Assembly: GCA_021734045.1 (NCBI GenBank)
Contig: JAIPJR010000001.1
Location: forward strand, 5,901-69,900
From: Fidelibacterota bacterium
GTDB lineage: Bacteria; Fidelibacterota; UBA8477
Reading direction: 5' to 3'
Length of the DNA: 64,000 nucleotides
The translations under genes were made by a program, and so were the position numbers. Positions within the stretch are counted from its first letter, which is position 1. Every line of letters starts with the position of its first letter. Below, one piece after another: positions 590 to 48,110 of this stretch. The notes beneath the pieces were generated by a model. That model saw only the letters and a program-made list of their open reading frames with translations. It made no database searches and was not told the origin of the DNA.

Positions 590-2695
590 ATGCCCATGGT
601 AAATCTATCTATAATCATTCTGGTCTTACCCCTTATCAGCTTTGTCTTCCAAATGTTTTTTGGGCGCCGGCTGGAAGGTAAAAAGGGCGAATGGATTTCC
701 ATCTCGCTGGTACTGGTGACGCTGTTATTGGCCATCATCATGTTTGCCAACATGCTCTTCGACTACCAACCCGATTTCAGGCAGGAAGCCCAATTCACCT
801 GGCTGAATCTGGGGAGCTTTCAGCTTGAGATGGGGATTTTGGTGGACAATATCACCATTATCATGTTGCTGGTGGTCGCCATCATCAGCGGCTTGGTGCA
901 CATCTACTCGGTGGAGTACATGAAGGACGATGTGCGCTATTCACGCTACTTTGGTTTTCTGGGAATTTTTACCTTCTCTATGTATGGCATCACCATCGCC
1001 AATAATCTCTTTATGATATACTGTTTCTGGGAGTTGGTGGGTTTGTCATCTTACCTGTTGATTGGACACTGGTGGGAGAAAAAATCGGCTGCGGATGCCG
1101 GTAAAAAAGCCTTTATCGTGAACCGCATTGGCGATATCGGTATGTTTATGGGGTTGATGATCGTTGCTACCGTGGCCGGTACCTTTAATTACGAATTATT
1201 GTTTGAGCGCATCGGTAATGGTGCCTGGGCGGCCGGTGTTGGTGGCTTGTTCGGCGGCGTGGATCCCAATACCCTCCTGACCTGGGCGGGGGTGCTAATT
1301 TTCATGGGTGCAATTGGCAAATCGGCGCAATTTCCGTTGCATGTCTGGTTACCGGATGCCATGGAAGGTCCCACGCCGGTCTCTGCATTAATCCATGCGG
1401 CGACTATGGTGGCGGCAGGTGTTTATCTCACGGTTAGAATATTCCCCATGCTCACACCAAACGCCATGTCATTCATTGCTTTAATCGGCGGATTTACGGC
1501 CTTTTTCGCTGCCACGATTGCTATTACCCAGAATGACATTAAAAAGGTGCTGGCCTATTCGACCGTGTCCCAATTGGGGTACATGATTATGGCACTGGGA
1601 ACCGGTGCCTATGTTGCGGGCTTTTTCCACCTGGTGACACACGCCATGTTCAAGGGGCTGCTCTTTCTGGCGTCTGGTTCGGTTATTCACATGATGCATC
1701 ATAGTTTGCATAAACTGGGTGACCATGAAACCGATGCCCAGGATATGCGCAATATGGGTGGTTTGCGGACGAAAATGCCGATTACCTACACCGTATTTTT
1801 AATCGCATCATTGTCCATCTCAGGGATACCGCTTTTCTCAGGATTTCTGAGTAAAGATGCCATTCTGGCCGGTACTTGGGCTTATGCAGCCCACATTCAT
1901 GACGGCTGGCTGGCCCAGGCGCATCTGGGCTGGCTGCTACCTTTCTTTGGCTTTTCGGCAGCATTGATTACGGCATTTTACATGTTCCGGCTTATGTTTA
2001 TGACATTCCACGGTGAGCCGAAAAATAAAGCCATATTTGATAACATGCATGAAGCACCCCGATTGATTACGGTGCCCATCATGGTATTGGGCGCGCTTTC
2101 CACCTGGATATTCTTCTCACTACCCTCATTCAATCCACTGGGTGGCGAAGGGTGGTTCCACCACCTGGTGCAGCAGGCGAAGAGTGTGGTACCAACGGGT
2201 GCTTTTGACGCAGAGACCTTCGCGCACGGATTGCATGCAGCCCACTATCCGGCCATGTACACCTCACTAATCGTGGCCGGGTTGGGTATTGGTCTGGCTG
2301 TGCTGATTTATCTGCTGCGGGAGATTGATCCAGAAAAAATCGCTATCCGATTGGGTGTGCTGTACCGCGGTTCCCTGAACAAGTGGTACATGGACGAAAT
2401 CTACTTGCACGGTATCATCCGGCCATTTTTAAAGGGCTGTGGTGCCGTGGCAACATTTGATATGGAAATTTATGATCATTATGTCATCGATGGTGTGGGG
2501 CGTCGTGTGAAATCCTTGGCGACCGGAACCGGTGTGGCAGATGATCTGGTGGTTGACGGTGCCGTGAATCTATTCGGCATCATTTTTCAATGGCTGGGGT
2601 GGACACTAAAGTTTGTCCAGACCGGTAAAATTCAGAATTATTTGATCTATGTGCTCATCGGAGTGCTGATGGTCTATTTAATCAATGTCTTCTAG
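590..2695 (+). CDS. nuoL: NADH-quinone oxidoreductase subunit L (Mrp antiporter-like)
   Basis: 701-aa polytopic membrane protein carrying the conserved NuoL/ND5 antiporter-like core (…WLPDAMEGPTPVSALIHAATMVAAGVY…). It is the first of three antiporter-like subunits in order. Confidence 0.9.
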   Translation: MPMVNLSIIILVLPLISFVFQMFFGRRLEGKKGEWISISLVLVTLLLAIIMFANMLFDYQPDFRQEAQFTWLNLGSFQLEMGILVDNITIIMLLVVAIISGLVHIYSVEYMKDDVRYSRYFGFLGIFTFSMYGITIANNLFMIYCFWELVGLSSYLLIGHWWEKKSAADAGKKAFIVNRIGDIGMFMGLMIVATVAGTFNYELLFERIGNGAWAAGVGGLFGGVDPNTLLTWAGVLIFMGAIGKSAQFPLHVWLPDAMEGPTPVSALIHAATMVAAGVYLTVRIFPMLTPNAMSFIALIGGFTAFFAATIAITQNDIKKVLAYSTVSQLGYMIMALGTGAYVAGFFHLVTHAMFKGLLFLASGSVIHMMHHSLHKLGDHETDAQDMRNMGGLRTKMPITYTVFLIASLSISGIPLFSGFLSKDAILAGTWAYAAHIHDGWLAQAHLGWLLPFFGFSAALITAFYMFRLMFMTFHGEPKNKAIFDNMHEAPRLITVPIMVLGALSTWIFFSLPSFNPLGGEGWFHHLVQQAKSVVPTGAFDAETFAHGLHAAHYPAMYTSLIVAGLGIGLAVLIYLLREIDPEKIAIRLGVLYRGSLNKWYMDEIYLHGIIRPFLKGCGAVATFDMEIYDHYVIDGVGRRVKSLATGTGVADDLVVDGAVNLFGIIFQWLGWTLKFVQTGKIQNYLIYVLIGVLMVYLINVF

Positions 2696-2716
2696 GACAG
2701 GGAGGAATTGGCTTAG

Positions 2717-4225
2717 ATGGGTGCGCATCTCTTAACGCTAGTGACCTTTATACCGGTATTGGGCGGGATTATCATCGCGTTCATTCCCCGTGAGAAACTG
2801 GATGCCATTCGTTGGACTGCTGTTGCGGCGACAGCATTGCAGCTATTGGTTTCATTCGTGATCCTGGGAAGCTACGACCGGATGAATCCCGACATCCAGA
2901 TGGTAGAACACTACTCATGGATACCGGCATTCAATATTGAATACTTTATGGGCATTGATGGACTGAGCCTGCCGATGGTGCTATTAACGCCATTTATCAG
3001 TTTTCTGGCCATCTTTTCATCCTGGAAAATTCCGAAAGCCCAGAAGGGATATTTCTCCCTGTTTCTACTCCTTGATACCGGGATGATGGGTGTCTTTGTA
3101 TCCCTGGATTTCTTCCTGTTTTACATCTTCTGGGAAGTGATGCTACTGCCCATGTACTTCCTTATCGGGATGTGGGGTGGTCCGAAAAAAGAATATGCCG
3201 CCATTAAGTTCTTTTTATACACATTGTTTGGCTCCGTCCTCATGTTGCTGGGTATGCTGGCACTCTATTTTTCACTGGAGCCCCATACTTTTAATATGAT
3301 AATCCTACGGGACGCCGCCCCGGAAATCGGTCAAAAACTCCTGCTGGGGATGAATGCCGCCAAAGTGATTTTTATGCTGCTATTCGTGGGATTCGCCATC
3401 AAAGTTCCCATTTTCCCATTCCATACCTGGTTACCGTTGGCGCATGTGGAAGCTCCCACCGCGATTTCTGTGATTCTGGCTGGAATTCTGTTGAAAATGG
3501 GTACCTACGGATTTCTCCGGATTTCCTGGCCGGTTTTGCCCAGCGCTACGCTTTGGTTCGCACTGCCAATGGCGATTCTTGGGCTGATTAATATCATTTA
3601 TGGAGCGATGGCTGCTCTGGCGCAGAAAGACCTGAAGAAAATGGTGGCCTACTCATCCATCAACCATATGGGTTACGTTCTTCTGGGAATGAGTGCCATG
3701 ACTGCCGCCGGTATGAATGGCGCGGTCTTTCAGATGTTTAACCACGGCACCATCACAGCCATGCTCTTTATGTTAGTGGGTGTGGTGTATGACCGGGCTC
3801 ATCATCGTGATATCGATGGGTTTGGCGGAATCGCGGCGAAGGTTCCTATCTACGCGGGTGTTGTGGCGCTGGCGTGGTTCGCAGGTCTGGGCTTGCCGGG
3901 TCTGTCGGGATTCATTTCAGAAGCACTTTGCTTCATTGGTGCCTTCCCGGTTTTCACCTGGATTACCATTTTTGCTACCCTGGGAATCGTGCTGAATGCA
4001 GCTTATTTTCTCTGGTCCTACCAGCGCATTTTCTTCGGTCCGCTTAACCCCAAATATGAGAATCTGGAGGAGATCAATAAGCGTGAATTGTGGACGCTGA
4101 TTCCCCTGGCCGTAGTGGTGATTTTCCTGGGAATCTATCCGGCTCCCATGCTGGATCTCATGAGCGGAACGCTGAATCAACTGGTTGATATTGTTAAAAC
4201 CGCCGGCATGATGGCTGGTTTCTAA
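2717..4225 (+). CDS. nuoM: NADH-quinone oxidoreductase subunit M
   Basis: 502-aa antiporter-like membrane protein (…HTWLPLAHVEAPTAISVILAGILLKMG…), the ND4 family, in the middle position of the three. Confidence 0.9.
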   Translation: MGAHLLTLVTFIPVLGGIIIAFIPREKLDAIRWTAVAATALQLLVSFVILGSYDRMNPDIQMVEHYSWIPAFNIEYFMGIDGLSLPMVLLTPFISFLAIFSSWKIPKAQKGYFSLFLLLDTGMMGVFVSLDFFLFYIFWEVMLLPMYFLIGMWGGPKKEYAAIKFFLYTLFGSVLMLLGMLALYFSLEPHTFNMIILRDAAPEIGQKLLLGMNAAKVIFMLLFVGFAIKVPIFPFHTWLPLAHVEAPTAISVILAGILLKMGTYGFLRISWPVLPSATLWFALPMAILGLINIIYGAMAALAQKDLKKMVAYSSINHMGYVLLGMSAMTAAGMNGAVFQMFNHGTITAMLFMLVGVVYDRAHHRDIDGFGGIAAKVPIYAGVVALAWFAGLGLPGLSGFISEALCFIGAFPVFTWITIFATLGIVLNAAYFLWSYQRIFFGPLNPKYENLEEINKRELWTLIPLAVVVIFLGIYPAPMLDLMSGTLNQLVDIVKTAGMMAGF

Positions 4226-4255
4226 ACGGTCGTGAAAGCGAAGTAGAGTCGTACT

Positions 4256-5746
4256 ATGGATTTAACTCAACTCGCCCTGAGCCTCAAGTACTTTATCCCC
4301 GAGATGGTCCTCACGGGCTTTATTGTCGTGGCCATTCTGTATGACCTGTTTCTGAAACCGGAGACCAGTCACCGGGTCGGGTTTGTGGCTATCGCCGGGC
4401 TGGTGGTTACACTGGGGATGTTGTATCAGCAGCAGGGAATTCCGGCAACCGGTATTTTTGCTAACATGTTCGCGTTGGATGGTTTTGCGACCTTTTTTAA
4501 ATGGGTTGTGGCCATTGGCGCGGCGCTGGCAATCTGGATGTCATTGGATACGAAGGAGCTGGAAAATCGACGGGTTGGTGAATATCACATTCTCATCCTG
4601 ATTTTAGTGCTGGGGATGTTTCTCCTCGTCTCCGCGACGCACATTATCTCCATCTATCTCTCGCTGGAAATGGTCAGTATCATGTCCTATCTGCTGGCCG
4701 GTTATCTCAAGGAAAACAGTCGTTCCAATGAAGCCAGTGTGAAGTATGTGATTTATGGTGCCTTCTCGTCGGGCATTATGCTATACGGTCTGTCACTTCT
4801 GTATGGGTTAACCGGTACCGGCTATATCAGTGAGATTCAGGCGCAACTGGTGCTGGGGCAGGTCTCGCCGGTGATGCTGGTTTTAGTCACCGTGTTGCTC
4901 TTGGCCGGATTTGGGTATAAAATTTCCGCTGTCCCGTTTCATTTCTGGACACCGGATGTATATGAAGGTGCGCCCACACCCATCACGGCCTTTTTATCCG
5001 TCGCTCCCAAAGCAGCCGGATTTGCAGTGCTGATTCGATTCTTCAATGTTGCCCTTTCTCAGGGAGATCCCAACACACCCTCCTGGCTGGCGCTGCCCGG
5101 TCTGGATTGGCCCATGATTATTGCCGTTTTGAGTGCGATAACCATGACCGTGGGAAATGTCCTGGCTATTCAGCAGAATAATATCAAACGGCTGCTGGCC
5201 TACTCAAGTATTGCCCATGCCGGATACATGCTCATGGGTGTCGTGGTTGCCGACCAAACCGGTATAGCAGCCATTCTCTATTATGCTGGTGTGTACATGC
5301 TCATGAACCTGGGGGCCTTCTTCGTTGCCATTCAGATTAAAAATATTTACAACACGGAAACCATCGCAGACTATGCCGGCTTGGGCTTTAAGGCACCCTG
5401 GATTGGAATAGCCATGGCGGTCTTCCTCTTTGCCCTTACTGGTTTACCACCAACCGCAGGATTTGTAGCCAAATTTTACCTCTTTCGTGCCCTGGTTCAA
5501 TTTGGAGACGGATTTTTGTGGTTGGCTATGTTCGGCTTACTTAATGGTGTCGTGAGTTTGTTCTATTATATGCGGATATTGAAAGCCATGTATTTCGATA
5601 AAATGGAGATTCCAGAGAAACTCACGGCTGTGCCGCTCCATTTCAATGTTCTCATGTTTATCCTGGTGGTCCCGCTGTTGGTGGGGTGGATGTTTGGTGA
5701 TCCCCTGTCTATCTGGGCAGCTGAAGCGGTGCAATTTTTCTTCTAG
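4256..5746 (+). CDS. nuoN: NADH-quinone oxidoreductase subunit N
   Basis: 496-aa antiporter-like membrane protein (…FHFWTPDVYEGAPTPITAFLSVAPKAAGF…), the ND2 family. It is the last gene of the nuo operon and is followed by a terminator. Confidence 0.9.
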   Translation: MDLTQLALSLKYFIPEMVLTGFIVVAILYDLFLKPETSHRVGFVAIAGLVVTLGMLYQQQGIPATGIFANMFALDGFATFFKWVVAIGAALAIWMSLDTKELENRRVGEYHILILILVLGMFLLVSATHIISIYLSLEMVSIMSYLLAGYLKENSRSNEASVKYVIYGAFSSGIMLYGLSLLYGLTGTGYISEIQAQLVLGQVSPVMLVLVTVLLLAGFGYKISAVPFHFWTPDVYEGAPTPITAFLSVAPKAAGFAVLIRFFNVALSQGDPNTPSWLALPGLDWPMIIAVLSAITMTVGNVLAIQQNNIKRLLAYSSIAHAGYMLMGVVVADQTGIAAILYYAGVYMLMNLGAFFVAIQIKNIYNTETIADYAGLGFKAPWIGIAMAVFLFALTGLPPTAGFVAKFYLFRALVQFGDGFLWLAMFGLLNGVVSLFYYMRILKAMYFDKMEIPEKLTAVPLHFNVLMFILVVPLLVGWMFGDPLSIWAAEAVQFFF

Positions 5747-10530: not shown

Positions 10531-10605
10531 GGGACCGTAGTTCAGCTTGGTTAGAACGCCAGCCTGTCACGTTGGAGGTCGCGGGTTCGAGCCCCGTCGG
10601 TCCCG
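10531..10605 (+). tRNA. tRNA-Asp (anticodon GUC)
   Basis: Folds by hand into a cloverleaf. The acceptor stem GGGACCG/CGGTCCC, D-arm GTTC…GAAC, anticodon stem CCAGC/GTTGG with loop CTGTCAC (anticodon GTC), and T-arm GCGGG-TTCGAGC-CCCGT all pair. CCA is not encoded. Confidence 0.85.
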
Positions 10606-35805: not shown

Positions 35806-38007
35806 TCAGATTGAGGCTGAGAGTGAAAAACTCACCTGGCGTCCCGGCAGGGGATATCGTTCCAGCACCTCATACTGCTGGTTGGTGAGATTGTGGATGG
35901 TCAGGTTCGTGGTGAGGGTGGTTGTGGCGAATGAAAATTTATTTCCCACGGCCATGGTCCAGTCGGAAAACGGTTCCAGCCATTTGGTATTAGCTTTACG
36001 GATATATGTGCGTCCCTGTGCATGCCAGGTGGTTTGCAAGAAATAGCTTCGCCATTGCCATTTTGTATTCACGGTTACCTGATGTAATGCCCGGTAGGGC
36101 AGGTATTTTTGATAAGAATTAGCTCCCGGTGTGAGATTAATTGGGCGTCTGGCATCATACATCACATCCATCATGAAATAATTTGCCCAAGGGGTCAGGC
36201 TGACCAGAACATTGTACCCGGTAATCTGTGCCGATTCCACATTTTCAGGTGCGAAACGGTTGGCGTAACCCCGCACCCAACTGATGAGGTCTGTATATTT
36301 CTGACGGTACACCGTTCCGGACAGGGTCACTTGCCAGGGTGAAAAATCCGTGAAACGCAATCCCCACTCCGCATCCCGACTGCGCTCAGGATTCAAATCC
36401 GGATTGCCTACAGCATAAGCGTCGGGCACCCAGAATAATTCCCAGAAGCTGGGCAGGCGGTATCCCGTACCCATTTTGATCCAGGTCGAGAAGCGCTCTG
36501 TGTGTAGCCGCCAATGGGTCTGCCAGGTAAATGACACCTCACTTCGGCCCGTCGTTTCGTAGCGGGTCATTAAGGTGGGCGAGAGGGTATAGTTGGAGAT
36601 AGGCAGATGATACTCTCCGGATGCCACAATCGCCCGGGTATCGCGTTCATGCTGACCCAGACTGTACTGGGGGCGCAACCGATCCTGAGCGTCAAGGGAC
36701 TCACCACGCCAGGTCATTTCCAGCCCCAGAGCCGTGGACTCGGATTGGTAGGTTCCCTTCAGACTTTGCTCCAGAAGTCCGTGTGCCGTTTGAAGATGAT
36801 ACCCACCAAATACCGATTCCTGAGCAGATTGATTCTGCTCTGTTCGGTCCCAGGTGGTAGCACTGGTGACAGACCAGGAATTTTTGTTGAAAATCACTTG
36901 GGTAGCCAGGTGCTGCTGCAGTGCGTCCCGGGTGGCGTCGGGTGTTAATTCATACAATGGCCCGGGTAATCCCTGTTGAGAATGGCTTACAAATCCCAGA
37001 CTTTCCCAATGCAGACCGGAGCGCGGTGAGTAGGTGGTGTTCAGCCACAGCGATTGTTGGGAATGGGCAGCATTCTGTCGTCGGAAAGATTCACCGTCCA
37101 CCGTGTACGGGTAATTATTTTGACCCGTTTCCCAATTTCCATGCGCGCTTACCGAGAATGTACGGCGGCGTACTTCGCCCCGTGCCCGCATGCGCTGCTG
37201 GCCCCAATTTCCGGTGGTAGCTGTTAAGCCATACTGCTCGTCCTGGGGAGCTGGTGCCAGGATAATATTCACCACCCCGCCCATAGCCTGGCTACCGTAC
37301 CGGGAAGACTGATTGCCGGGTGCGATTTGGATTTCACCGATGGATTGGGGCGCAATCTGATTCACATCAAAACCACCGCTACTACCGGTCTGTACCGGCT
37401 GGCCGTTCACCAGAATCAAGACCTGATTGGCTTGGCTGCCCCGAAGGGTAATTTTTGGCGTTTGGCCTGGTCCCCTTGACTGGCGTTCAATTTCAGGGAT
37501 ACGCACGAGCAAATCGGATACATCCCGGGCAACCAGGATATCTTCCTCTGAGGGCCGAAAGCGGTGAAATGTACCGGCTGGTAGCGATAGGTTTCGTGGT
37601 GACGCGGTGGCTTCCACCTGTACCGCAGGGAGATCAATCTGTCGCGGTGTGAGCGTCACGGAGAGATTCGCACTGCCCCGGGGATTCAGGTCAATGGCCA
37701 GTTCTTCCGGTTCGTATCCGATATGCGTAAAGCGGAGTTTCACACTACCCGCCCGAGGTGCCTGTATTTGGAAGCGTCCGGACTGATTGGTGACGGTGCC
37801 CGTGCTGGCATTCATCAGGATGACCTGGGTTTCTGCCAGCCCTTTTCCCGTAATCGCATCCCGGACAATGCCGGAAACGGTGAAATCCCGGCCAAAGTTC
37901 CAGGACGGGCAAATGAGTAACACCACCAGGAAGGTTCTGAGTAATGGAAACAGTTTTACCGGAACTGGTAGTCGCGGTTTTGGGGGAAGTGAGTATGAGA
38001 AATACAT
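35806..38007 (-). CDS. TonB-dependent outer-membrane receptor (BtuB-like; N-terminal carboxypeptidase-regulatory-like domain)
   Basis: Plug domain and 22-strand barrel signatures (…TLRGSQANQVLILVNGQPVQ…, TonB-box-like segment). Preceded by a cobalamin riboswitch. ATG 38007 (MYFSYSL…) has an RBS GAGG. The ORF-track start at 38013 is a TTG. Confidence 0.85.
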   Translation of the reverse strand: MYFSYSLPPKPRLPVPVKLFPLLRTFLVVLLICPSWNFGRDFTVSGIVRDAITGKGLAETQVILMNASTGTVTNQSGRFQIQAPRAGSVKLRFTHIGYEPEELAIDLNPRGSANLSVTLTPRQIDLPAVQVEATASPRNLSLPAGTFHRFRPSEEDILVARDVSDLLVRIPEIERQSRGPGQTPKITLRGSQANQVLILVNGQPVQTGSSGGFDVNQIAPQSIGEIQIAPGNQSSRYGSQAMGGVVNIILAPAPQDEQYGLTATTGNWGQQRMRARGEVRRRTFSVSAHGNWETGQNNYPYTVDGESFRRQNAAHSQQSLWLNTTYSPRSGLHWESLGFVSHSQQGLPGPLYELTPDATRDALQQHLATQVIFNKNSWSVTSATTWDRTEQNQSAQESVFGGYHLQTAHGLLEQSLKGTYQSESTALGLEMTWRGESLDAQDRLRPQYSLGQHERDTRAIVASGEYHLPISNYTLSPTLMTRYETTGRSEVSFTWQTHWRLHTERFSTWIKMGTGYRLPSFWELFWVPDAYAVGNPDLNPERSRDAEWGLRFTDFSPWQVTLSGTVYRQKYTDLISWVRGYANRFAPENVESAQITGYNVLVSLTPWANYFMMDVMYDARRPINLTPGANSYQKYLPYRALHQVTVNTKWQWRSYFLQTTWHAQGRTYIRKANTKWLEPFSDWTMAVGNKFSFATTTLTTNLTIHNLTNQQYEVLERYPLPGRQVSFSLSASI

Positions 38008-38029
38008 CTGCAAACCTCATTCGCGAAGG

Positions 38030-38200
38030 CTATAGCGTGAATGACGTGTCGTGCAGGTGTCCTGACTCCCGGATCATTCTCCTCCAGCGCCTTCCCAGCT
38101 AGGTAAAAAGCCAGTGGCGGATTGCCAGATTCGTTCCCGGTTACAGTAGCGCGTCTGTGCCCGATTCTCACGGGCTTCCCGTACGCGACACATCTCAAAA
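38030..38200 (-). promoter_or_regulatory. Cobalamin (B12) riboswitch in the 5' leader of the TonB-dependent receptor
   Basis: The minus-strand transcript reads …GGGAAGCCCGTGAGAATCGGGCACAGACGCGCTACTGTAACCGGGAACGAATCTGGCAATCCGCCACTGGC…GCTGGGAAGGCGCTGG…. This contains the conserved core elements GGGAA…GTGAGAATC…CGC-ACTGTAA…the B12 box GCCACTG…GGGAAGG. The sequence ends about 20 nt before the RBS of the receptor gene. Confidence 0.8.
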
Positions 38201-38429
38201 TTTGAAAAATCGCTCATTAAGCTAAATGGCTCCTGGTTGATTACAATAAATTTCTTACACGATGATGCATTTCTTTGTTCGGTGGATAGTAAGCAACAAT
38301 AAATACAGTTAGATACGCGATAAATCACCCGGAGCATACCTGGGGATGATACGGTCTTGCAGGCGGGATATCCGCCGTTGGAGTCTAATCCGTCAGCGGT
38401 TAAATTGGCCACGCCTTGAAGGAGGGATT

Positions 38430-41659: not shown

Positions 41660-42415
41660 ATGTCTGAGTCAGCCAATTCCGGAGACGCCAAAGCGGGAAT
41701 TCGATTGAATCGTTTCCTTGCCATGGCCGGTATCGGGTCGCGACGGGTTTGTGATGAGTTGATTCAAAAGGGCATGGTTCAAGTTAATGGCGTGATACAG
41801 GTTGAGCCGGCAACGCGTGTCGTGGAAGGGCGGGATCAGGTTGAATTTCAAGGCCGTCCGGTGAATTTGGTTCATGAAACTCATTATTACATCTTTAATA
41901 AGCCACGGGGCGTAATTACCACCACAAGTGATCCCTTTGGCCGGCCCATTGTGGTGGATTTTTTGCCCGGTGATGCACGCATTTACCCGGTGGGACGATT
42001 GGATTTCGACACCACCGGCGCTTTATTGCTCACCAATGATGGGGACGTGGCATATCGGCTCACCCATCCCAAATTTCAGATACCAAAAGTTTACCAGGTT
42101 TTGGTTCGCGGAAACCCGCCGGAAGCGACCCTGCGCCGGGTGGAGGCTGGCATAGAAATTGAAGCCGGGTTTGTTGCCAGAGGTGAAATTAACGGATTTT
42201 GGTACCGGGGTGGCAACACCGAGGTCCGGTTGACGCTACGGGAAGGAAAAAAGCGCGAAGTGAAACGCATCTTTCGTACTCTGGGACATCCGGTTGTGCG
42301 CTTACACAGAGAATCCTTTGCCGCGTTGACGGTGACCGGATTAAAACCCGGTGAATGGCGTGAATTGACGCCAGAGGAAGTACGCGAACTCAAGGAGCTG
42401 GTTCATGGACATTAA
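41660..42415 (+). CDS. rluB: 23S rRNA pseudouridine synthase (RluB/RsuA family) with N-terminal S4 domain
   Basis: S4 RNA-binding region (…LNRFLAMAGIGSRRVCDELIQKGMVQVNG…) and catalytic motif (…YPVGRLDFDTTGALLLTNDG…). Confidence 0.8.
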   Translation: MSESANSGDAKAGIRLNRFLAMAGIGSRRVCDELIQKGMVQVNGVIQVEPATRVVEGRDQVEFQGRPVNLVHETHYYIFNKPRGVITTTSDPFGRPIVVDFLPGDARIYPVGRLDFDTTGALLLTNDGDVAYRLTHPKFQIPKVYQVLVRGNPPEATLRRVEAGIEIEAGFVARGEINGFWYRGGNTEVRLTLREGKKREVKRIFRTLGHPVVRLHRESFAALTVTGLKPGEWRELTPEEVRELKELVHGH

Positions 42416-44114
42416 GGGTAAACGGGTGATGATTTTTGGTGGCTGGGGTTTGGTTGGCCGGGCGGTGGCAAAGCAGGTTTTGCGTGAACAACCAACGGAA
42501 TTAATTCTTACTTCACTCCGGGAAAATGAAGCCCGGGAGATTCAGGAAATCCTGGCAAATCATCCGGTAAACCGGGGGACGCGCATCTCCGTTGTGCATG
42601 GTGATTTATTCGTGCGTAAAGAATTGTCACTGAAATCAAAGGGTGAAATCTACGAAACCGACGATTTGCTCCAGACCATGATCCAGGACCTTTACGATGA
42701 TTTGAGTCCGGATATTATCGAAAATTCCAACCTCTACCAGGTTTTGAATCAGTACAAACCTCAGATACTCATAGATTGTATTAATACCGCTACGGCATTT
42801 GCCTATCAAAATGTTTTTCAGGTCGTGGCGGAAGTACGAGCGGATCTGGCGAAAGCACGGTCGGGAGAGACCGTTAGCGATGATTTTACAAAGAAGGTAG
42901 AGCGACTGGTTTCTACCCTTTACATCCCTCAACTCATCCGGCACGTCCAGATACTGATTGAAGCCATGCGTCAGGCGGAAACAGAATTTTACCTGAAGGT
43001 TGGAACTTCGGGAACCGGCGGTATGGGCTTTAATATTCCCTACACCCACTCGGAGGAAAAGCCTTCTAAAATGCTCATGAGCAAATCGTCTTTGGCTGGT
43101 GCCCATACCATGCTGCTCTGGTTATTGGGGCGGACGCCGCATACACCGATTGTAAAGGAAATCAAACCTACCGCCGCCATCGCATGGAAAAAAATCGGGT
43201 ATGGCAAAGTTGTGAAGCGGGGGCAATTCATTCCAATGTACGATTGTCTGCCTGATTTGGAAACCACGCTGGGGCATGAATTGGTTCGGAATCCTGCACC
43301 TACCTGGCAGCGATTGGAGGAACGTTTTATCGAGTCGGTTTACATTGACGCCGGTGAAAACGGGTATTTCTCCGCTGGTGAGTTTTCAGTCCTTACCGCC
43401 GAAGGTCAGATGGAATTTGTCACACCTGAAGAGATTGCCGATAAGGTATTGATTGAGATTAAAGGCGGTAATACGGGCAATGACATTATCGGCTCGTTGG
43501 ATTCGTCGGTACTGGAACCCTCTTATCGTGCGGGATTAATCCGGAAAAATGCCATCGAACGCATGGGTGATTTGCAGCAGGAAACCGGTTCAGACAGCGT
43601 GGCATTTGAACTCCTGGGACCACCCAGGTTGACCAAACTACTGTATGAAATTTACATGCTGAAGCGGTTGCACGGGGCTGTGAATGCGGTACTGGATACA
43701 CCGGCGTCTGATCTGGCAGCTGCAATGGAAGAGTTAATTCTTTCCGACGATGAATTGCGTGCCACTATTATCTCGGTTGGAACGCCGATTTTGCTGAGTG
43801 ATGGAAAAACCTACCTGCGGGGACCCTCCATTTCGGTGCCGGTTTTCGAAGGGCAGCCGGTTTTGCCGGTAACACCGGAGAATATCGAAAAATGGACCTC
43901 CCAGGGCTGGCTGGATTTACGCGTGTCCAACATGGAATATTGGCAAAAACGCCTCCATTGCCTGTTGGATGATCAGGAATTGGAGCCGGAGGACGATTAT
44001 TCGTCCTACTACTATCGTAACCGACGATTTTTGGATGCGAAAGAGCGCATGGACATTGGTGCAATTGTGAATTGGATCATGGAGTATGAGGATAAAGGTT
44101 ATCGCATTAAATAG
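42405..44114 (+). CDS. Uncharacterised 569-aa protein with N-terminal NAD(P)-binding Rossmann-like motif
   Basis: The N-terminus KRVMIFGGWGLVGRAVAKQV resembles a GxGxxG dinucleotide-binding fold. The remainder (…VGTSGTGGMGFNIPYTHSEEKP… and a long C-terminal region) carries no motif I can confidently assign. Overlaps the rluB stop by 11 nt. Confidence 0.5.
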   Translation: MDIKGKRVMIFGGWGLVGRAVAKQVLREQPTELILTSLRENEAREIQEILANHPVNRGTRISVVHGDLFVRKELSLKSKGEIYETDDLLQTMIQDLYDDLSPDIIENSNLYQVLNQYKPQILIDCINTATAFAYQNVFQVVAEVRADLAKARSGETVSDDFTKKVERLVSTLYIPQLIRHVQILIEAMRQAETEFYLKVGTSGTGGMGFNIPYTHSEEKPSKMLMSKSSLAGAHTMLLWLLGRTPHTPIVKEIKPTAAIAWKKIGYGKVVKRGQFIPMYDCLPDLETTLGHELVRNPAPTWQRLEERFIESVYIDAGENGYFSAGEFSVLTAEGQMEFVTPEEIADKVLIEIKGGNTGNDIIGSLDSSVLEPSYRAGLIRKNAIERMGDLQQETGSDSVAFELLGPPRLTKLLYEIYMLKRLHGAVNAVLDTPASDLAAAMEELILSDDELRATIISVGTPILLSDGKTYLRGPSISVPVFEGQPVLPVTPENIEKWTSQGWLDLRVSNMEYWQKRLHCLLDDQELEPEDDYSSYYYRNRRFLDAKERMDIGAIVNWIMEYEDKGYRIK

Positions 44115-44143
44115 CGGATAATCCATAGAATTTCTCTGATGTA

Positions 44144-44311
44144 ATGGCATTATACGGTCGCAATTATTTTGGTCTCTGGCTCATCATGGGGATGATGATT
44201 GGTTTTTTTGTGGGCACCGGTTTTCAGTCGCCGGAAGTGGGGGTGGTTGCCGGGGGCGGCTTGGGACTACTCTACGCATGGCTGAAGAGCCGAAAGCATT
44301 CGGGTGAATAA
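44144..44311 (+). CDS. Small (55 aa) hydrophobic protein, uncharacterised (below the ORF-track cut-off)
   Basis: ATG at 44144 encodes MALYGRNYFGLWLIMGMMIGFFVGTGFQSPEVGVVAGGGLGLLYAWLKSRKHSGE with one or two TM helices, in the intergenic region after the 569-aa gene. Coding status uncertain. Confidence 0.3.
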   Translation: MALYGRNYFGLWLIMGMMIGFFVGTGFQSPEVGVVAGGGLGLLYAWLKSRKHSGE

Positions 44312-44384
44312 ATCCCTACCAAGCCCATCCCGGCGTATTACTTTCCCCTGAACATCATCAACATACAGGGTGTGGAGGAGATAA

Positions 44385-44603
44385 ATGGCTCGATTATTAA
44401 CAACGAGAAATGCCTTGTGGATTACATTGGCAACGGGTGTAGGTGCTGTACTGCAATTCTATGCGCTCCTGCGCTATGTGGACCGTCTCCCCGGTGATAC
44501 GGTTGGCATCATTATTTATGCAATCACCTGTCTTTGTTTTCTCATTCTGGCGGGTGTTTGTTTTCGGATTTGGCGACGGTTGGCGACTGAAAACAACGCG
44601 TGA
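44385..44603 (+). CDS. Small (72 aa) two-TM protein, uncharacterised
   Basis: MARLLTTRNALWITLATGVGAVLQFYALL…IIIYAITCLCFLILAGVCF… carries two hydrophobic helices. No homology assignable by eye. Confidence 0.3.
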   Translation: MARLLTTRNALWITLATGVGAVLQFYALLRYVDRLPGDTVGIIIYAITCLCFLILAGVCFRIWRRLATENNA

Positions 44604-44740
44604 TAAATCCTGCATGCCCCGGCTTCAGAATATTGCTTTCGAAAAAGTTGGATTCACACAGACCGGCGACTATATTTGGCCGCTTTTATGAGAGCAGTTA
44701 GAGAATATAAGCGCAATAGAATTAATGGTTTTTTGAAAGC

Positions 44741-47700
44741 ATGATTATCGCCATTGATGGTCCGGCGGCATCCGGAAAATCCAGTACTGCAGCGCGTGTT
44801 GCGGCGAAATTGGGGTTCCGGCATATTGATACCGGTGCCATGTACCGGGCTGTGACCTTGTACATGTTGGATCATGGTGTAGATATTTCGGACACAGAAT
44901 CCGTTCTGAACGTACTGCCGGATGTGGATGTGTCGCTTGAATTTAAAGGTGATAATCAACATGTGATTCTAGCGGGTGTGGATGTGAGTGATCGCATCCG
45001 AACGCCGGCTGTGAATGAGCATGTGAGCCAGGTTAGCGCAATACCGGCCGTACGCCAGCGTCTCGTAGAACTCCAGCGCCAAGCTGCCAATGACTACGAT
45101 GTGGTATTGGAAGGACGCGACATCGGAACAGTCGTATTTCCCAATGCCGAATTGAAAATTTTTATGATTGCCGATGTCCATGTCCGGGCACAACGGCGCC
45201 AGCAGGAGTTGGCGAGCCTGGGCATTCAGCAAGACCTGGCTGAATTGGAAAAAGATCTGATAGCGCGTGACAAAATCGATTCATCGCGAGAATTGTCACC
45301 ATTGAAACCCGCTACTGATGCAGTCGAGCTGGATACATCCAAGCTTACCATCGACCAGCAGGTAGCATTCATCGTTAACCAAGCCAAGCAACTGATTGCA
45401 GAGGAGGAAAGACCCTTCATGGCAGAAGAAGAAAAAAAGGATGCACCGCAGACTGAAGACCAGTCCCAGGAGACATCCGAAACCACCTCAGACGCCGTCG
45501 AGATGACGCCCGCCGAGGAAACCCAGGACAAAAAAGAAGAGACCATCGCGTCTGAACCTGAACCCGAAACCAAAACCGAGACCGAAGCTGAATCCAAAAC
45601 TGAAGCCGAAGCCGAAGCCGAAGCCGAAGCCGAAGCCGCAGAAACTGACGCTAACACCGCATCTGCTAAAGATGAGGGTGACGAAGTCAGTTCTGAGGTA
45701 GCACAAAAAACTGATGCTGAAATGACGCCTGAACAAGCCCCGGATACAGAAGCACCGGTCGAGGAAAGTGCGGAATCATCTGACAAAGATGAACCGGCCA
45801 AAAGCACTCGGAAAACCGTCAAGGTGAAAGCCAAAACTTCTGGTGAGCCACCGGTTCAACCGGTTGTTGATGCGGAAGAAGCTGAAAAAGCTTCGAAAAA
45901 GATTGCCGGACTGGATAAACGGTCCGCCATGAATGACATCTTCAACCAGATCAAGACAGTGAAGCCGGATCAGCTTGCTGAAACCATTGCTGAAGAATCC
46001 GAGGAAGTGAAAGACCTTTCCTTCCTGCTGGATCGTACTATCGCAGACATTACGCCGCGTACCCTGGTGGAAGGGCGTGTCATTTCTGTGGGCGATCGTG
46101 AAGTACTGGTGGACATCGGTTTCAAATCCGAAGGGCTGGTTTCCCGGGATGAATTCAAGGATGACGAATTGCCCAAGGTGGGTGATAAAATCGAATTATT
46201 CCTGGATACACTGGAAGATGATCAGGGTCAGACAATTCTGTCCAAACGCAAAGCAGATTTCATGCGTGTCTGGACCGCGATAAAAGATGTTTCCGACAAT
46301 GACGACCTCATCAATGGCACCATTACTCGCCGGATTAAAGGTGGTATGGTGGTGAATGTGATGGGTATTGATGCCTTCCTGCCCGGATCGCAACTGGATG
46401 TGCGCCCCATCCATGATTTTGACGCATATATCGGAAAGTCCTACGACTTCAAGATCGTCAAACTCAATGAAACCCGGAAGAATATCGTACTCTCACGGAA
46501 AGACCTGCTGGAGGAAAAACTCCAGAAACAGCGGGCTGAACTGTTGAAGAATATCGAGATTGGCCAGGTACTGGAAGGCCGGGTAAAAAATATCACCGAT
46601 TTTGGCGTATTCGTCGACTTGGGTGGTGTTGATGGTCTGTTGCATATCACCGATTTGTCCTGGGGACGGGTTAACCATCCCTCTGAAGTTGTGGATATGG
46701 ACGATGAAATTACCGTAAAGGTGATTGATTACGATGAAGAAAAACAGCGTGTCTCGCTGGGATTCAAACAGTTACAGCCACACCCGTGGGAACATGTGGA
46801 ACAGAAATATCCTGTGGGTTCTGCTGTTAAAGGCAAAGTGGTCAGCATCACCAATTACGGTATTTTTGTGGAATTGGAAGAGGGTGTTGAAGGTCTGGTA
46901 CATATCTCAGAAATTTCCTGGACCCAACACATCAAGCATCCATCGGAAATTTATTCGGTTGGTGACGAAATTGAGACCGTCGTGCTTTCAATCGCACCGG
47001 ATGATCGTAAAATCAGCCTGGGCGTGAAGCAACTGAAACCGGATCCCTGGACCCTGATTGAGGATACCTACATCGTGGGTACACTCCACACAGGTACGGT
47101 TAAGAACCTGACCCAGTTCGGCGCATTTGTTGAATTGGAAGAGGGTATCGAAGGCCTGATCCACATCTCAGATCTCTCATGGACGCGCAAAGTCCGTCAT
47201 CCGAAAGAGGTACTGAAACGCGGAGACGAAGTGGAAGTCCGCATTCTCGACATTGCTCAGGACCAGCGGAAAATCTCGCTTGGGCTCAAGCAGGCCGAGG
47301 AGGATCCATGGCCGCAGATTGAACAGGAATTTGCCGTGAACAGCACCCGTAAGGGTAAAGTCATCAAATTGCTGGACAAAGGCATCATCCTGGAGCTGGA
47401 AGGGACCGATGTTGAAGGTCTGATTCCCCTGGCTGCGTTCAACAAGAAAGACCGGAAGACGATTCTGGATAAGTTCGAGGTAGATCAGGAAGTAGAAGTC
47501 AAGGTGATCGAGATTGATCCCAATGACAAGAAAATCCTGGTCAGCCATGAAGCCGCCATCAAAGATAAAGAACGGGCGGTTGTGGACGAATATCTGCGCG
47601 GTCAGAAGCAGGACGGCAATAAGCTTGACATTCCCGATGAAATCGTGGCCAAAATCAAGGAAGCTGCCGAGGAAGAAACCGAGAAAAAGGTTGCTGCTGC

Positions 47701-48055
47701 TGCCAAGCGGAAAGCCGCTAAAGCAAAAGAAGAAGAAAAAGCACAGAAAAAAGCGGATGCGGAAGATGCTGCGGAATCAGAAGCTGAAGAGAAGCCTGCA
47801 TCCAAAACCAAAACCAAATCCAAATCCAAATCGAAATCGAAAGCAAAATCCGAAGATACGGAAGATGCTGCCGATGCCGATGCCGATGCCGATGAGGATG
47901 CTATTGAAACGGAAGCCACTGGAGAGAAAGAGCAATCTGACTCTGATGTGGAAAACGATGAAAAACCAGCGGACGAATCCGAATCTCCTGATGACGATTC
48001 AACAAAACCCGCTGATGATGCGAACGATGAGGAAGAATCCAAAGACGATAAGTAA
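44741..48055 (+). CDS. Cytidylate kinase - 30S ribosomal protein S1 fusion (Cmk-RpsA), with long low-complexity acidic linker and K/A/E/D-rich C-terminal tail
   Basis: N-terminus MIIAIDGPAASGKSSTAARVA…RDIGTVVFP is Cmk. About 180 aa of E/T/A/S/D-rich linker follow, including an (EA)n run. Then come six S1 repeats (…GRVISVGDREVLVDIGFKSEGLV…, …GQVLEGRVKNITDFGVFVDLGG…, …GSAVKGKVVSITNYGIFVELEEG…, …GTLHTGTVKNLTQFGAFVELEEG…, …RKGKVIKLLDKGIILELEG…). The sequence ends in KTKTKSKSKSKSKAKS and DADADADE runs. Confidence 0.85.
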   Translation: MIIAIDGPAASGKSSTAARVAAKLGFRHIDTGAMYRAVTLYMLDHGVDISDTESVLNVLPDVDVSLEFKGDNQHVILAGVDVSDRIRTPAVNEHVSQVSAIPAVRQRLVELQRQAANDYDVVLEGRDIGTVVFPNAELKIFMIADVHVRAQRRQQELASLGIQQDLAELEKDLIARDKIDSSRELSPLKPATDAVELDTSKLTIDQQVAFIVNQAKQLIAEEERPFMAEEEKKDAPQTEDQSQETSETTSDAVEMTPAEETQDKKEETIASEPEPETKTETEAESKTEAEAEAEAEAEAAETDANTASAKDEGDEVSSEVAQKTDAEMTPEQAPDTEAPVEESAESSDKDEPAKSTRKTVKVKAKTSGEPPVQPVVDAEEAEKASKKIAGLDKRSAMNDIFNQIKTVKPDQLAETIAEESEEVKDLSFLLDRTIADITPRTLVEGRVISVGDREVLVDIGFKSEGLVSRDEFKDDELPKVGDKIELFLDTLEDDQGQTILSKRKADFMRVWTAIKDVSDNDDLINGTITRRIKGGMVVNVMGIDAFLPGSQLDVRPIHDFDAYIGKSYDFKIVKLNETRKNIVLSRKDLLEEKLQKQRAELLKNIEIGQVLEGRVKNITDFGVFVDLGGVDGLLHITDLSWGRVNHPSEVVDMDDEITVKVIDYDEEKQRVSLGFKQLQPHPWEHVEQKYPVGSAVKGKVVSITNYGIFVELEEGVEGLVHISEISWTQHIKHPSEIYSVGDEIETVVLSIAPDDRKISLGVKQLKPDPWTLIEDTYIVGTLHTGTVKNLTQFGAFVELEEGIEGLIHISDLSWTRKVRHPKEVLKRGDEVEVRILDIAQDQRKISLGLKQAEEDPWPQIEQEFAVNSTRKGKVIKLLDKGIILELEGTDVEGLIPLAAFNKKDRKTILDKFEVDQEVEVKVIEIDPNDKKILVSHEAAIKDKERAVVDEYLRGQKQDGNKLDIPDEIVAKIKEAAEEETEKKVAAAAKRKAAKAKEEEKAQKKADAEDAAESEAEEKPASKTKTKSKSKSKSKAKSEDTEDAADADADADEDAIETEATGEKEQSDSDVENDEKPADESESPDDDSTKPADDANDEEESKDDK
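45602..45637 (+). repeat. (GAAGCC)5 hexanucleotide microsatellite inside cmk-rpsA (encodes EAEAEAEAEA)
   Basis: Five perfect tandem GAAGCC units, flanked by degenerate copies (gaagct, gaatcc, aaaact). Confidence 0.8.
47804..47902 (+). repeat. Tandem hexanucleotide repeats (AAAWCS)8 and (GATGCC)3-5 near the 3' end of cmk-rpsA
   Basis: aaaacc aaaacc aaatcc aaatcc aaatcg aaatcg aaagca aaatcc (47804-47851) encodes KTKTKSKSKSKSKAKS. gatgcc x3 with flanking gatgct and gatgag (47864-47902) encodes DADADADEDA. Confidence 0.8.
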
Positions 48056-48079
48056 CGGATTTTTCCTGTTTATATCTGA

Positions 48080-48110
48080 AAAGCCCTGTTTCGACAGGGC
48101 TTTTCTTTAT
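48080..48110 (+). terminator. Rho-independent terminator after cmk-rpsA
   Basis: Hairpin aaagccctgt-ttcg-acagggcttt followed by TCTTTATT. Located 25 nt after the stop codon. Confidence 0.7.

Follow-up and report, generated by a model that had tools for sequence, protein, structure and literature searches.

A cytidylate kinase-ribosomal protein S1 gene fusion common to Marinimicrobia retains a conserved candidate start site for S1

Introduction

A single open reading frame (ORF), cmk::rpsA, encodes both cytidylate kinase (Cmk) and a six-repeat ribosomal protein S1 in a 64,000-nucleotide stretch of DNA from a Fidelibacterota bacterium (assembly GCA_021734045.1, contig JAIPJR010000001.1; hereafter the window). 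The fusion is genuine and common to the Marinimicrobia lineage, and at the junction of its two parts it keeps an in-frame start codon and a Shine-Dalgarno (SD) sequence. From this conservation we propose that the gene probably yields two proteins from one mRNA, the Cmk-S1 fusion and a free S1 translated from the internal start, whose SD sequence would have been retained after the merger of two genes. What is new is the lineage-wide distribution of the fusion, the internal initiation region, which is retained and whose coding RNA is constrained, and the enlarged, hypervariable acidic arms of the S1 part. Through S1, bacterial ribosomes can capture mRNAs whose SD sequences are weak or missing, and the Marinimicrobia (SAR406) are abundant, uncultured bacteria of the ocean and of groundwater. 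The features discussed below are collected in Table 1.

Table 1. Features of the cmk::rpsA locus. Positions are those of the window; SD, Shine-Dalgarno; aa, amino acids; nt, nucleotides; pI, isoelectric point; pLDDT, predicted local distance difference test.
Feature	Residues	Positions	Strand	Basis or properties
Sigma-70-like promoter candidate, TTGGAT-17 nt-TATATT, 65-93 nt 5' of the cmk start		44648..44676	+	Conserved motif
cmk::rpsA fusion ORF		44741..48055	+	ATG start, 1104 aa, 122 kDa, pI 4.6
Cytidylate kinase domain	1-223	44741..45409	+	TIGR00017; AlphaFold2 pLDDT ~90
Internal initiation region: SD-like AGGAGG (45402-45407), 11-nt spacer, ATG (45419-45421, Met227)		45402..45421	+	Conservation
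Acidic disordered N-terminal extension of S1 (predicted)	227-396	45419..45928	+	AlphaFold2, charge
Candidate RNA hairpin H2, closing stem GGAUG/CAUCC		45439..45478	+	RNAalifold, 8 sequences
GC-rich candidate RNA hairpin H3 (CCUCAGACGCCGUCGAGAUGACGCCCGCCGAGG), encodes DAVEMTPAEE		45486..45518	+	RNAalifold, 8 sequences
Hypervariable repeat core, including (GAAGCC)6	276-350	45566..45790	+	Tandem arrays 45554-45638
S1 N-terminal helices	397-441	45929..46063	+	AlphaFold2 helices 393-403 and 409-435
Six S1 (OB-fold) domains	442-935	46064..47545	+	Pfam S1 x6; AlphaFold2 beta barrels, pLDDT 80-93
Long charged K/A/E helix	966-1004	47636..47752	+	AlphaFold2 helix, pLDDT 50-69; net charge +2
Disordered tail	1005-1104	47753..48052	+	pLDDT <35; net charge -26
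Terminator-like hairpin, 12-bp stem then T run, 23 nt past the stop codon		48078..48105	+

Cmk and S1 are fused throughout a bacterial lineage

The ORF has no internal stop codon, and both of its parts are recognised by family models. Pfam places Cytidylate_kin at residues 3-217 (E 2e-71) and finds S1 in six stretches of the protein (E 4e-86). Among the NCBIfam models, cmk TIGR00017 scores 244-246 bits (cutoff 135.55) with profile positions 3-216/217 covered, the rpsA equivalog NF004953 scores 750.2 bits (cutoff 720) over residues 408-971, entering the profile at position 14, and TIGR00717 scores 592 bits (cutoff 577) on the S1 part. An AlphaFold2 model of the fusion protein was built with a 68-sequence alignment. 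In these 68 homologues, the Cmk residues G7, G12, K13 and T16 of the P-loop, together with D30-T31-G32, R36, R105, R126-D127, R176-D177 and R183, are invariant; we take them to correspond to catalytic residues of the Escherichia coli enzyme (R41, for instance). Since the equivalog scores exceed their cutoffs, the Cmk residues are invariant and the AlphaFold2 folds are confident, the Cmk and S1 parts are both predicted to be intact, and the preliminary description of one ORF for Cmk and a six-repeat S1 is borne out.

A homologue search covered 5.8 billion proteins, from which the best 120 matches were analysed. Cmk and S1 lie in one protein in 119 of these 120 (820-1065 aa), and the few that carry source names belong to Candidatus Marinimicrobia/Neomarinimicrobiota. 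The closest named genomes are the metagenome-assembled genome Tobar14m-G39 (89% identity) and CG1_02_48_14 (79%), which places the window in a non-marine branch of the phylum. Fused homologues come from independently assembled NCBI, JGI, ENA, Logan and TARA data, and some are present on up to 126 contigs. The neighbourhood is shared too: the order (rluB or PF27054 gene)-cmk::rpsA-ybbR-tsaD is found in 10 of the 13 fused or split loci that we fetched from ENA, JGI, Logan and TARA, while the remaining three show the downstream genes only or no flank at all.

The preliminary description had allowed that a sequencing or assembly error, such as a missed stop codon near the end of the Cmk domain, might have produced an artefactual read-through between cmk and rpsA. 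We reject this scenario, which can be practically dismissed: the same fused ORF recurs in 119 homologues from separate assemblies of several databases and in 14 of the loci that we fetched, and the junction DNA of two relatives, L001 and L002, is identical or nearly identical to that of the window. The only fact that speaks for it is the junction stop codon of a single relative, L049, to which we return below.

Outside the lineage, the candidates for further fusions were matches of approximately 50% identity obtained by scanning genomes and metagenomes (L004, from Binatia, and L060, L062, L063 and L066). They proved to be unfused, with separate cmk and rpsA genes and another gene between them. 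An exhaustive search with the Cmk domain among 1.84 billion representatives returned mostly stand-alone Cmk (about 225 aa) and other fusions, Cmk-S1 appearing only as P0002 and P0181. A second cmk or rpsA, for which the preliminary description had advised a check, was not found in the 64-kb window, which is the range that our search covered. As a separate observation, P0056 (911 aa) is the only fused homologue without a methionine in the scanned junction range, and its extension-like sequence begins earlier than expected; this copy may have been rearranged or wrongly assembled.

A start codon and a Shine-Dalgarno sequence persist at the junction

In the 68-sequence alignment, Met227 is the sole invariant column between Q207 and D458. 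A methionine is found 1-8 residues past the end of Cmk in 118 of the 119 fused homologues, and at the DNA level a start codon is present at the junction in all 15 loci for which we have DNA (ATG in 14, GTG in one). Each of these start codons is preceded, 4-12 nt upstream, by a 5-7-nt match to AAAGGAGG. Comparable SD matches occur at 5.2% of local control positions and upstream of 7.7% of 800 internal in-frame ATGs. The residues that the SD stretch encodes vary among lineages (EEE, NGG, KEG, KRK, KES, QGK or KGE). All 15 loci hence combine a conserved in-frame start with an SD sequence at functional spacing, as expected of an internal-initiation gene.

The one case with a different start codon is informative. 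In P0181 (L083, positions 2001-4778) the junction methionine is replaced by valine; from the protein alone we predicted a GTG codon ahead of seeing the DNA, and the prediction held, the DNA reading GGAGG-9 nt-GTG. At the other end of the gene, the cmk start shows an SD match of at least 5 nt in only 2 of 11 loci, and upstream of the cmk start of the window the longest match is 3 nt. The junction peptide of the fusion is ...EERPFMAEEEK (...IAEEERPFMAEEEK), so that a protein made from the internal start would begin with MAEEEKK... or AEEEKK.... We also considered a second start at Met397 (AMNDIFNQ) and rejected it, as it has no SD sequence and the methionine is absent in short-extension clades.

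A natural variant separates the two genes at exactly this position. In L049 (P0068), positions 3998-4003 lie in the context aacTGAATG, a one-base difference from the aacTTAATG of its relative L050. The resulting stop codon leaves cmk (225 aa) and rpsA (828 aa) as separate genes, and the start of this rpsA is exactly the junction ATG.

It is possible, though not likely, that the 1104-aa Cmk-S1 protein is the single product of the gene. Each S1 on the ribosome would then bear a Cmk domain by way of a long acidic tether, and the SD sequence and the methionine would be kept for some other reason, such as pausing or a role in a peptide motif, or as an evolutionary relic. Such an account draws on the reading frame, open across the junction in 119 of the 120 homologues, on the conserved promoter candidate, found only upstream of cmk, and on Treponema pallidum, whose fusion is annotated as one bifunctional protein. 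A relic, however, should have decayed amid flanks that cannot be aligned, and every one of the 15 loci retains both signals, the case that lacks methionine having GTG instead. A cmk start without an SD sequence in 9 of 11 loci fits poorly with the ribosome-level abundance of S1, two clades show constraint on synonymous sites near the junction (see below), and L049 functions with a stop codon at this place.

The coding RNA downstream of the internal start is constrained

Synonymous codon identity rises around the junction. Between the window and L001 it is 0.96-1.00 at codons 181-270, compared to 0.70 overall; with L002 it is 0.83-0.85 at codons 211-270, compared to 0.495 overall; and in a second clade (L050, L081 and L082) it ranges from 0.67 to 0.93 in 20-codon bins over codons 201-280, with overall values of 0.48-0.49. 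The 270-nt junction region folds with a z of -2.8. The first third of the acidic region that follows Cmk (aa 224-275) is 90% identical to that of the closest homologue, P0001, and is conserved at synonymous sites as well.

Two candidate hairpins, H2 and H3, were obtained from an alignment of eight sequences, in which 98% of cells are paired. H2 has five pairs, two of them changed on both sides, and an interior that is specific to each clade. H3, about 75 nt past the internal start, has ten pairs and is 100% paired. It contains a GC-rich core of 29 nt (45491-45519) that is nucleotide-identical in the eight sequences, which belong to four lineages with GC contents of 0.39-0.49; the seven degenerate codons of this core show zero synonymous changes, and its flanks cannot be aligned between clades. 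All substitutions in H3 fall in the loop, fall in an unpaired bulge or preserve pairing. For instance, L080 carries a double change from G-C to A-U that costs two amino-acid changes. Several pairs have switched from G.U to G-C, and because of its G.U pairs the hairpin would form in the sense RNA. Taken with the synonymous sites, the hairpin suggests that the first third of the acidic region is conserved at the RNA level rather than as protein.

Other sources of constraint were considered. No Rfam family was found at the junction, either in a scan of the whole window at gathering thresholds or in E-value mode over 44300-46100, where only chance-level matches appeared. An overlapping antisense gene was rejected: the 202-aa ORF at 45226-45834 (minus strand) is Ser/Ala-rich and is conserved neither in L001 nor in other clades, and it looks like a compositional shadow of stop-poor, GA-rich sequence, not a gene.

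A dnaX-like -1 frameshift would be another way to exploit this region, releasing a free 238-aa Cmk alongside the fusion. An A_AAA_AAG heptamer does lie in the correct frame at 45433-45439, 12 nt past the internal ATG, with a TGA in the -1 frame five codons on and with H2 following it, and GAAGAAGAAAAAAAGGAT has no synonymous-site change among the window, L001 and L002. Yet the same in-frame heptamer occurs four times in the 19,872 codons of the window and is absent from other clades, being confined at the junction to the clade of the window. In dnaX, the stimulatory SD sequence and hairpin act at characteristic spacings; here the heptamer lies 25 nt past the SD sequence and directly abuts the hairpin (0 nt), and neither distance falls in those ranges. 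We have rejected a frameshift of the dnaX type on these grounds and regard this route to free Cmk as very improbable.

The acidic region reads as an N-terminal extension of S1

Between the two folded parts, AlphaFold2 predicts residues 224-396 without secondary structure (pLDDT 25-30). From Met227 to residue 396 there are 51 D+E and 20 K+R, giving a net charge of -31 and an isoelectric point of 4.16, with zero aromatic residues. The richest 40-aa stretch of the fusion protein reaches 50% D+E, and no other ORF of at least 150 aa in the window exceeds 33%. The last part of the region, ahead of the S1 helix, is a moderately conserved basic patch. Neither the acidic region nor the C-terminal tail is matched by any Pfam family. 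Homologues have their first S1 domain 65-238 aa beyond the end of Cmk and carry tails of 0-146 aa, both segments remaining acidic; the S1 domains themselves are 90-97% identical within the close clade.

The alignments with canonical S1 place its N-terminus at approximately residue 392 of the fusion, according to both NF004953 and the S1 chains of the PDB, which align from the S1 N-terminal helices onward (one of them, 4toi, is an S2-S1 chimera). Since the junction start and its SD sequence precede the acidic region, and canonical S1 aligns only from about residue 392, we read this region as extending S1 at its N-terminus, with the ancestral rpsA initiation site, apparently intact, in front of it. 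It had been described as an acidic linker of about 180 aa. Its acidity, its disorder and, at about 170 aa, nearly its length stand; it would not be a simple linker, given the junction SD sequence and start, which make it part of S1. By the same alignments, the helices ahead of the first S1 domain would be the counterpart of the uS2-docking N-terminus of canonical S1, here made internal after 170 or 396 residues, depending on the start used.

The C-terminal tail, for its part, is much as first described. The stretch rich in K, A, E and D, estimated at about 130 aa, covers residues 972-1104 (133 aa) and contains 48 D+E and 25 K+R.

An extended disordered region also invites the idea that cellular proteases cut the fusion there, so that Cmk and S1 are released as separate proteins. 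Protein segments without structure are, as a rule, readily attacked by proteases, and residues 224-396 are predicted to be fully disordered. We found no defined cleavage site in the sequence, however, and the hypervariable core of the region has no motif common to the clades. Cleavage would also leave the conserved SD sequence and start, as well as the synonymous constraint, unexplained. As the source of free S1 it is improbable, and it is in any case compatible with internal initiation, the two not being exclusive.

Tandem repeats change the length of the acidic arms in frame

The only perfect hexamer tandems of at least three copies in the 64 kb are three in-frame arrays within this gene: (GAAGCC)6 at 45602-45637; (AAAWCS), perfect in six copies at 47804-47839 and followed by AAAGCA AAATCC to give eight Lys-X dipeptides; and (GATGCC)3 at 47873-47890, equivalent to (TGCCGA)4 at 47869-47892. 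The preliminary description had named the same three arrays, correctly placed in frame, with counts that need amending: (GAAGCC) has six copies instead of five, and (AAAWCS) is perfect over six instead of eight. In the whole window, all arrays that score at least 50 in Tandem Repeats Finder fall in the extension or the tail of the fusion gene.

Length variation follows these arrays. Compared to P0001, a homologue that is 88% identical, the core at residues 276-350 shows 53% identity and 33 gap columns, and the S1 domains 97% identity. Among five strains of a sister species, which share 99.5-99.9% identity, there is a single 12-aa insertion or deletion, equal to one repeat of an array of 4.3 units of 36 nt; between L059 and L058 (99.9% identity), for instance, the difference amounts to one such unit. 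In-frame expansion and contraction, suspected earlier from the hexamers of the window, are hence directly supported in relatives. As for the window's own hexamers, no strain close enough for a comparison of copy numbers was found: the nearest relative is 88-89% identical, and the (EA)n run is replaced there by other sequence.

For both the window and L002, the array periods (6, 12, 18, 24, 30 or 36 nt) are all multiples of three, and the arrays lie in frame. In L050 the periods are 9, 12 or 18 nt in four of five rows, the fifth being a weak array with a period of 13 and 9% indels. We considered a phase-variable, on/off repeat locus and rejected it: the periods are multiples of three, and variation changes length only.

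A model with two products from one mRNA

That the internal start is used, how much of each product is made, whether the hairpins regulate and whether the acidic regions have a function are inferences from sequence comparison, and the scheme that we favour is as follows. A cmk-rpsA gene pair would have merged into one frame without a stop codon between the two genes. A single mRNA would run from the promoter candidate (44648-44676) to the terminator-like hairpin (48078-48105). Initiation at the internal SD sequence and ATG (45419) would yield an abundant S1 of 878 aa and 97 kDa, and initiation at the cmk ATG, which has no SD sequence, would yield a minor Cmk-S1 of 1104 aa and 122 kDa that supplies the cytidine monophosphate (CMP) kinase activity of the cell. 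H2 and H3 would most likely tune initiation, possibly through autoregulation by S1. The core of the extension and the tail repeats would grow and shrink by slippage or recombination, with their acidic and disordered character kept. With two products, the stoichiometry problem of one nucleotide kinase per ribosome would be removed.

Several points weigh against this scheme. At the junction, the spacing between SD sequence and ATG in the clade of the window (11 nt) is close to the upper limit of efficient spacings. An SD match of at least 5 nt is found in only 24% of the first-start ORFs of these loci, a figure that is a lower bound, as ORF starts were uncurated. The single unfused relative, P0068/L049, is represented by one sequence from a single contig, and an error in sequencing or a minor variant may account for it; the argument for use of the internal start is one of conservation. 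At the RNA level, covariation support from eight related sequences is modest, shuffled alignments reaching the percentage of paired cells in 5 of 500 cases and the number of both-side changes in 16 of 500, and the short-extension clades do not have the H3 sequence. Finally, the hairpin region also encodes the conserved peptide DAVEMTPAEE, so that some constraint at the protein level is possible.

One can take the model further, on the same sequence evidence, to a bolder version for the Marinimicrobia lineages sampled: S1, an essential protein, would be made from an internal start controlled by RNA structure, the sole Cmk would be a minor Cmk-S1 that its S1 part can place on the ribosome, and the rapidly evolving, disordered acidic arm would be an intramolecular nucleic-acid mimic that tunes mRNA capture. 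We consider this combination unlikely as a whole. If true, the ribosome-placed Cmk-S1 would tie the recycling of CMP physically to translation and to the turnover of mRNA.

The two-product model, if true, would be a natural gene fusion that retains the initiation signals of the downstream gene, giving an enzyme-ribosomal protein fusion and a free S1 at different levels, and it would add, within coding sequence, a new candidate for a cis-regulatory RNA of S1. It would also correct annotation, public records reading '30S ribosomal protein S1' or '(d)CMP kinase'. The hypervariable acidic arms offer a strain-level length marker and a natural series for the study of disordered acidic extensions of S1. 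Even if the fusion were the sole product, it would still be a lineage-wide example of a ribosome-tethered enzyme.

Comparison with known systems

The precedent is found in spirochaetes, as the preliminary description had indicated: TP0279 of T. pallidum is annotated as a Cmk/S1 fusion, one bifunctional ORF. As in the window, Cmk is N-terminal and a multi-domain S1 is C-terminal in one uninterrupted ORF, and both fusions presumably derive from the widespread adjacent order of cmk and rpsA. The two differ in phylum and in length, the protein of the window being about 240-275 aa longer (a 170-aa extension and a 100-aa disordered tail). Because relatives outside the Marinimicrobia are unfused, with an extra gene between cmk and rpsA, the sequences suggest that the spirochaete and Marinimicrobia fusions arose independently. 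Our search of the literature for S1 in Marinimicrobia and for the biology of Cmk-S1 fusions in general found nothing beyond the T. pallidum annotation.

In E. coli, cmk lies directly upstream of rpsA, and rpsA promoters are found within cmk. The bS1 of gamma-proteobacteria is autoregulated through its own structured initiation region, which has no canonical SD sequence and whose structure lies upstream of the AUG. The locus of the window shares with E. coli the gene order, rpsA signals in or next to cmk, and a constrained RNA around the rpsA start. It differs in that its ORFs are fused, its SD sequence is clear, no internal promoter was detected, and its hairpins lie downstream of the AUG, within coding sequence. 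By analogy, the role of the hairpins is probably similar in purpose, not in form, to that of the autoregulated rpsA initiation region.

Genes that give two isoforms by internal initiation include infB (IF2-alpha and IF2-beta), clpB and cheA. Like them, the fusion gene has a single ORF in which an in-frame internal start codon is conserved and is served by an SD sequence of its own, and a long and a short product with a common C-terminus are predicted. In contrast to these genes, the long form here adds a whole unrelated enzyme, which comes from the fusion of two ancestral genes, and the short product is a predicted one.

NCBIfam holds models for PanC/Cmk, AroA/Cmk, Cmk/Der and IspH/S1 fusions, to which our protein matches through its Cmk or its S1 part, far below the whole-protein cutoffs. 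These models show that Cmk and S1 each fuse repeatedly with genomic neighbours. No bifunctional Cmk/S1 model was found in NCBIfam.

Transcription signals and neighbouring genes

The promoter candidate was recognised by alignment: TTGnnn-(16-17 nt)-TATATT, followed by GGCCGCTTT, is aligned in seven long-extension loci (the window, L001, L002, L050, L081, L082 and L080). It had been missed by a consensus scan, the -35 hexamer matching at three of six positions. We also considered an internal sigma-70-type promoter for rpsA within cmk, as in E. coli, and rejected it, as no conserved motif was seen.

Upstream, a conserved 569-aa gene (42405-44114, plus strand) always precedes cmk::rpsA in the long-extension clades. 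Relatives of this gene carry a precomputed PF27054 (Beta_methylindole_red_C) assignment; our own scan gave only weak matches to NAD-binding families. The spacer between this gene and cmk (44115-44740) measures 626 nt, compared to 77-134 nt in L050-L052, and includes a 72-aa hydrophobic ORF (44385-44603, plus strand) without a Pfam match, so that the extra length may represent an insertion or a small membrane protein. In L080 (positions 1-1006), a transposase pair of the insertion sequence type (HTH_Tnp_1 and rve) lies directly 5' of cmk::rpsA, replacing the rluB/PF27054 neighbours.

Elsewhere in the window, a cobalamin riboswitch (RF00174, 96 bits) at 38035-38203 (minus strand) lies directly upstream of a 735-aa ORF (35806-38013, minus strand), which is presumably a B12-regulated gene. 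The only tRNA matched in the window is at 10531-10605 on the plus strand (RF00005, 65 bits).

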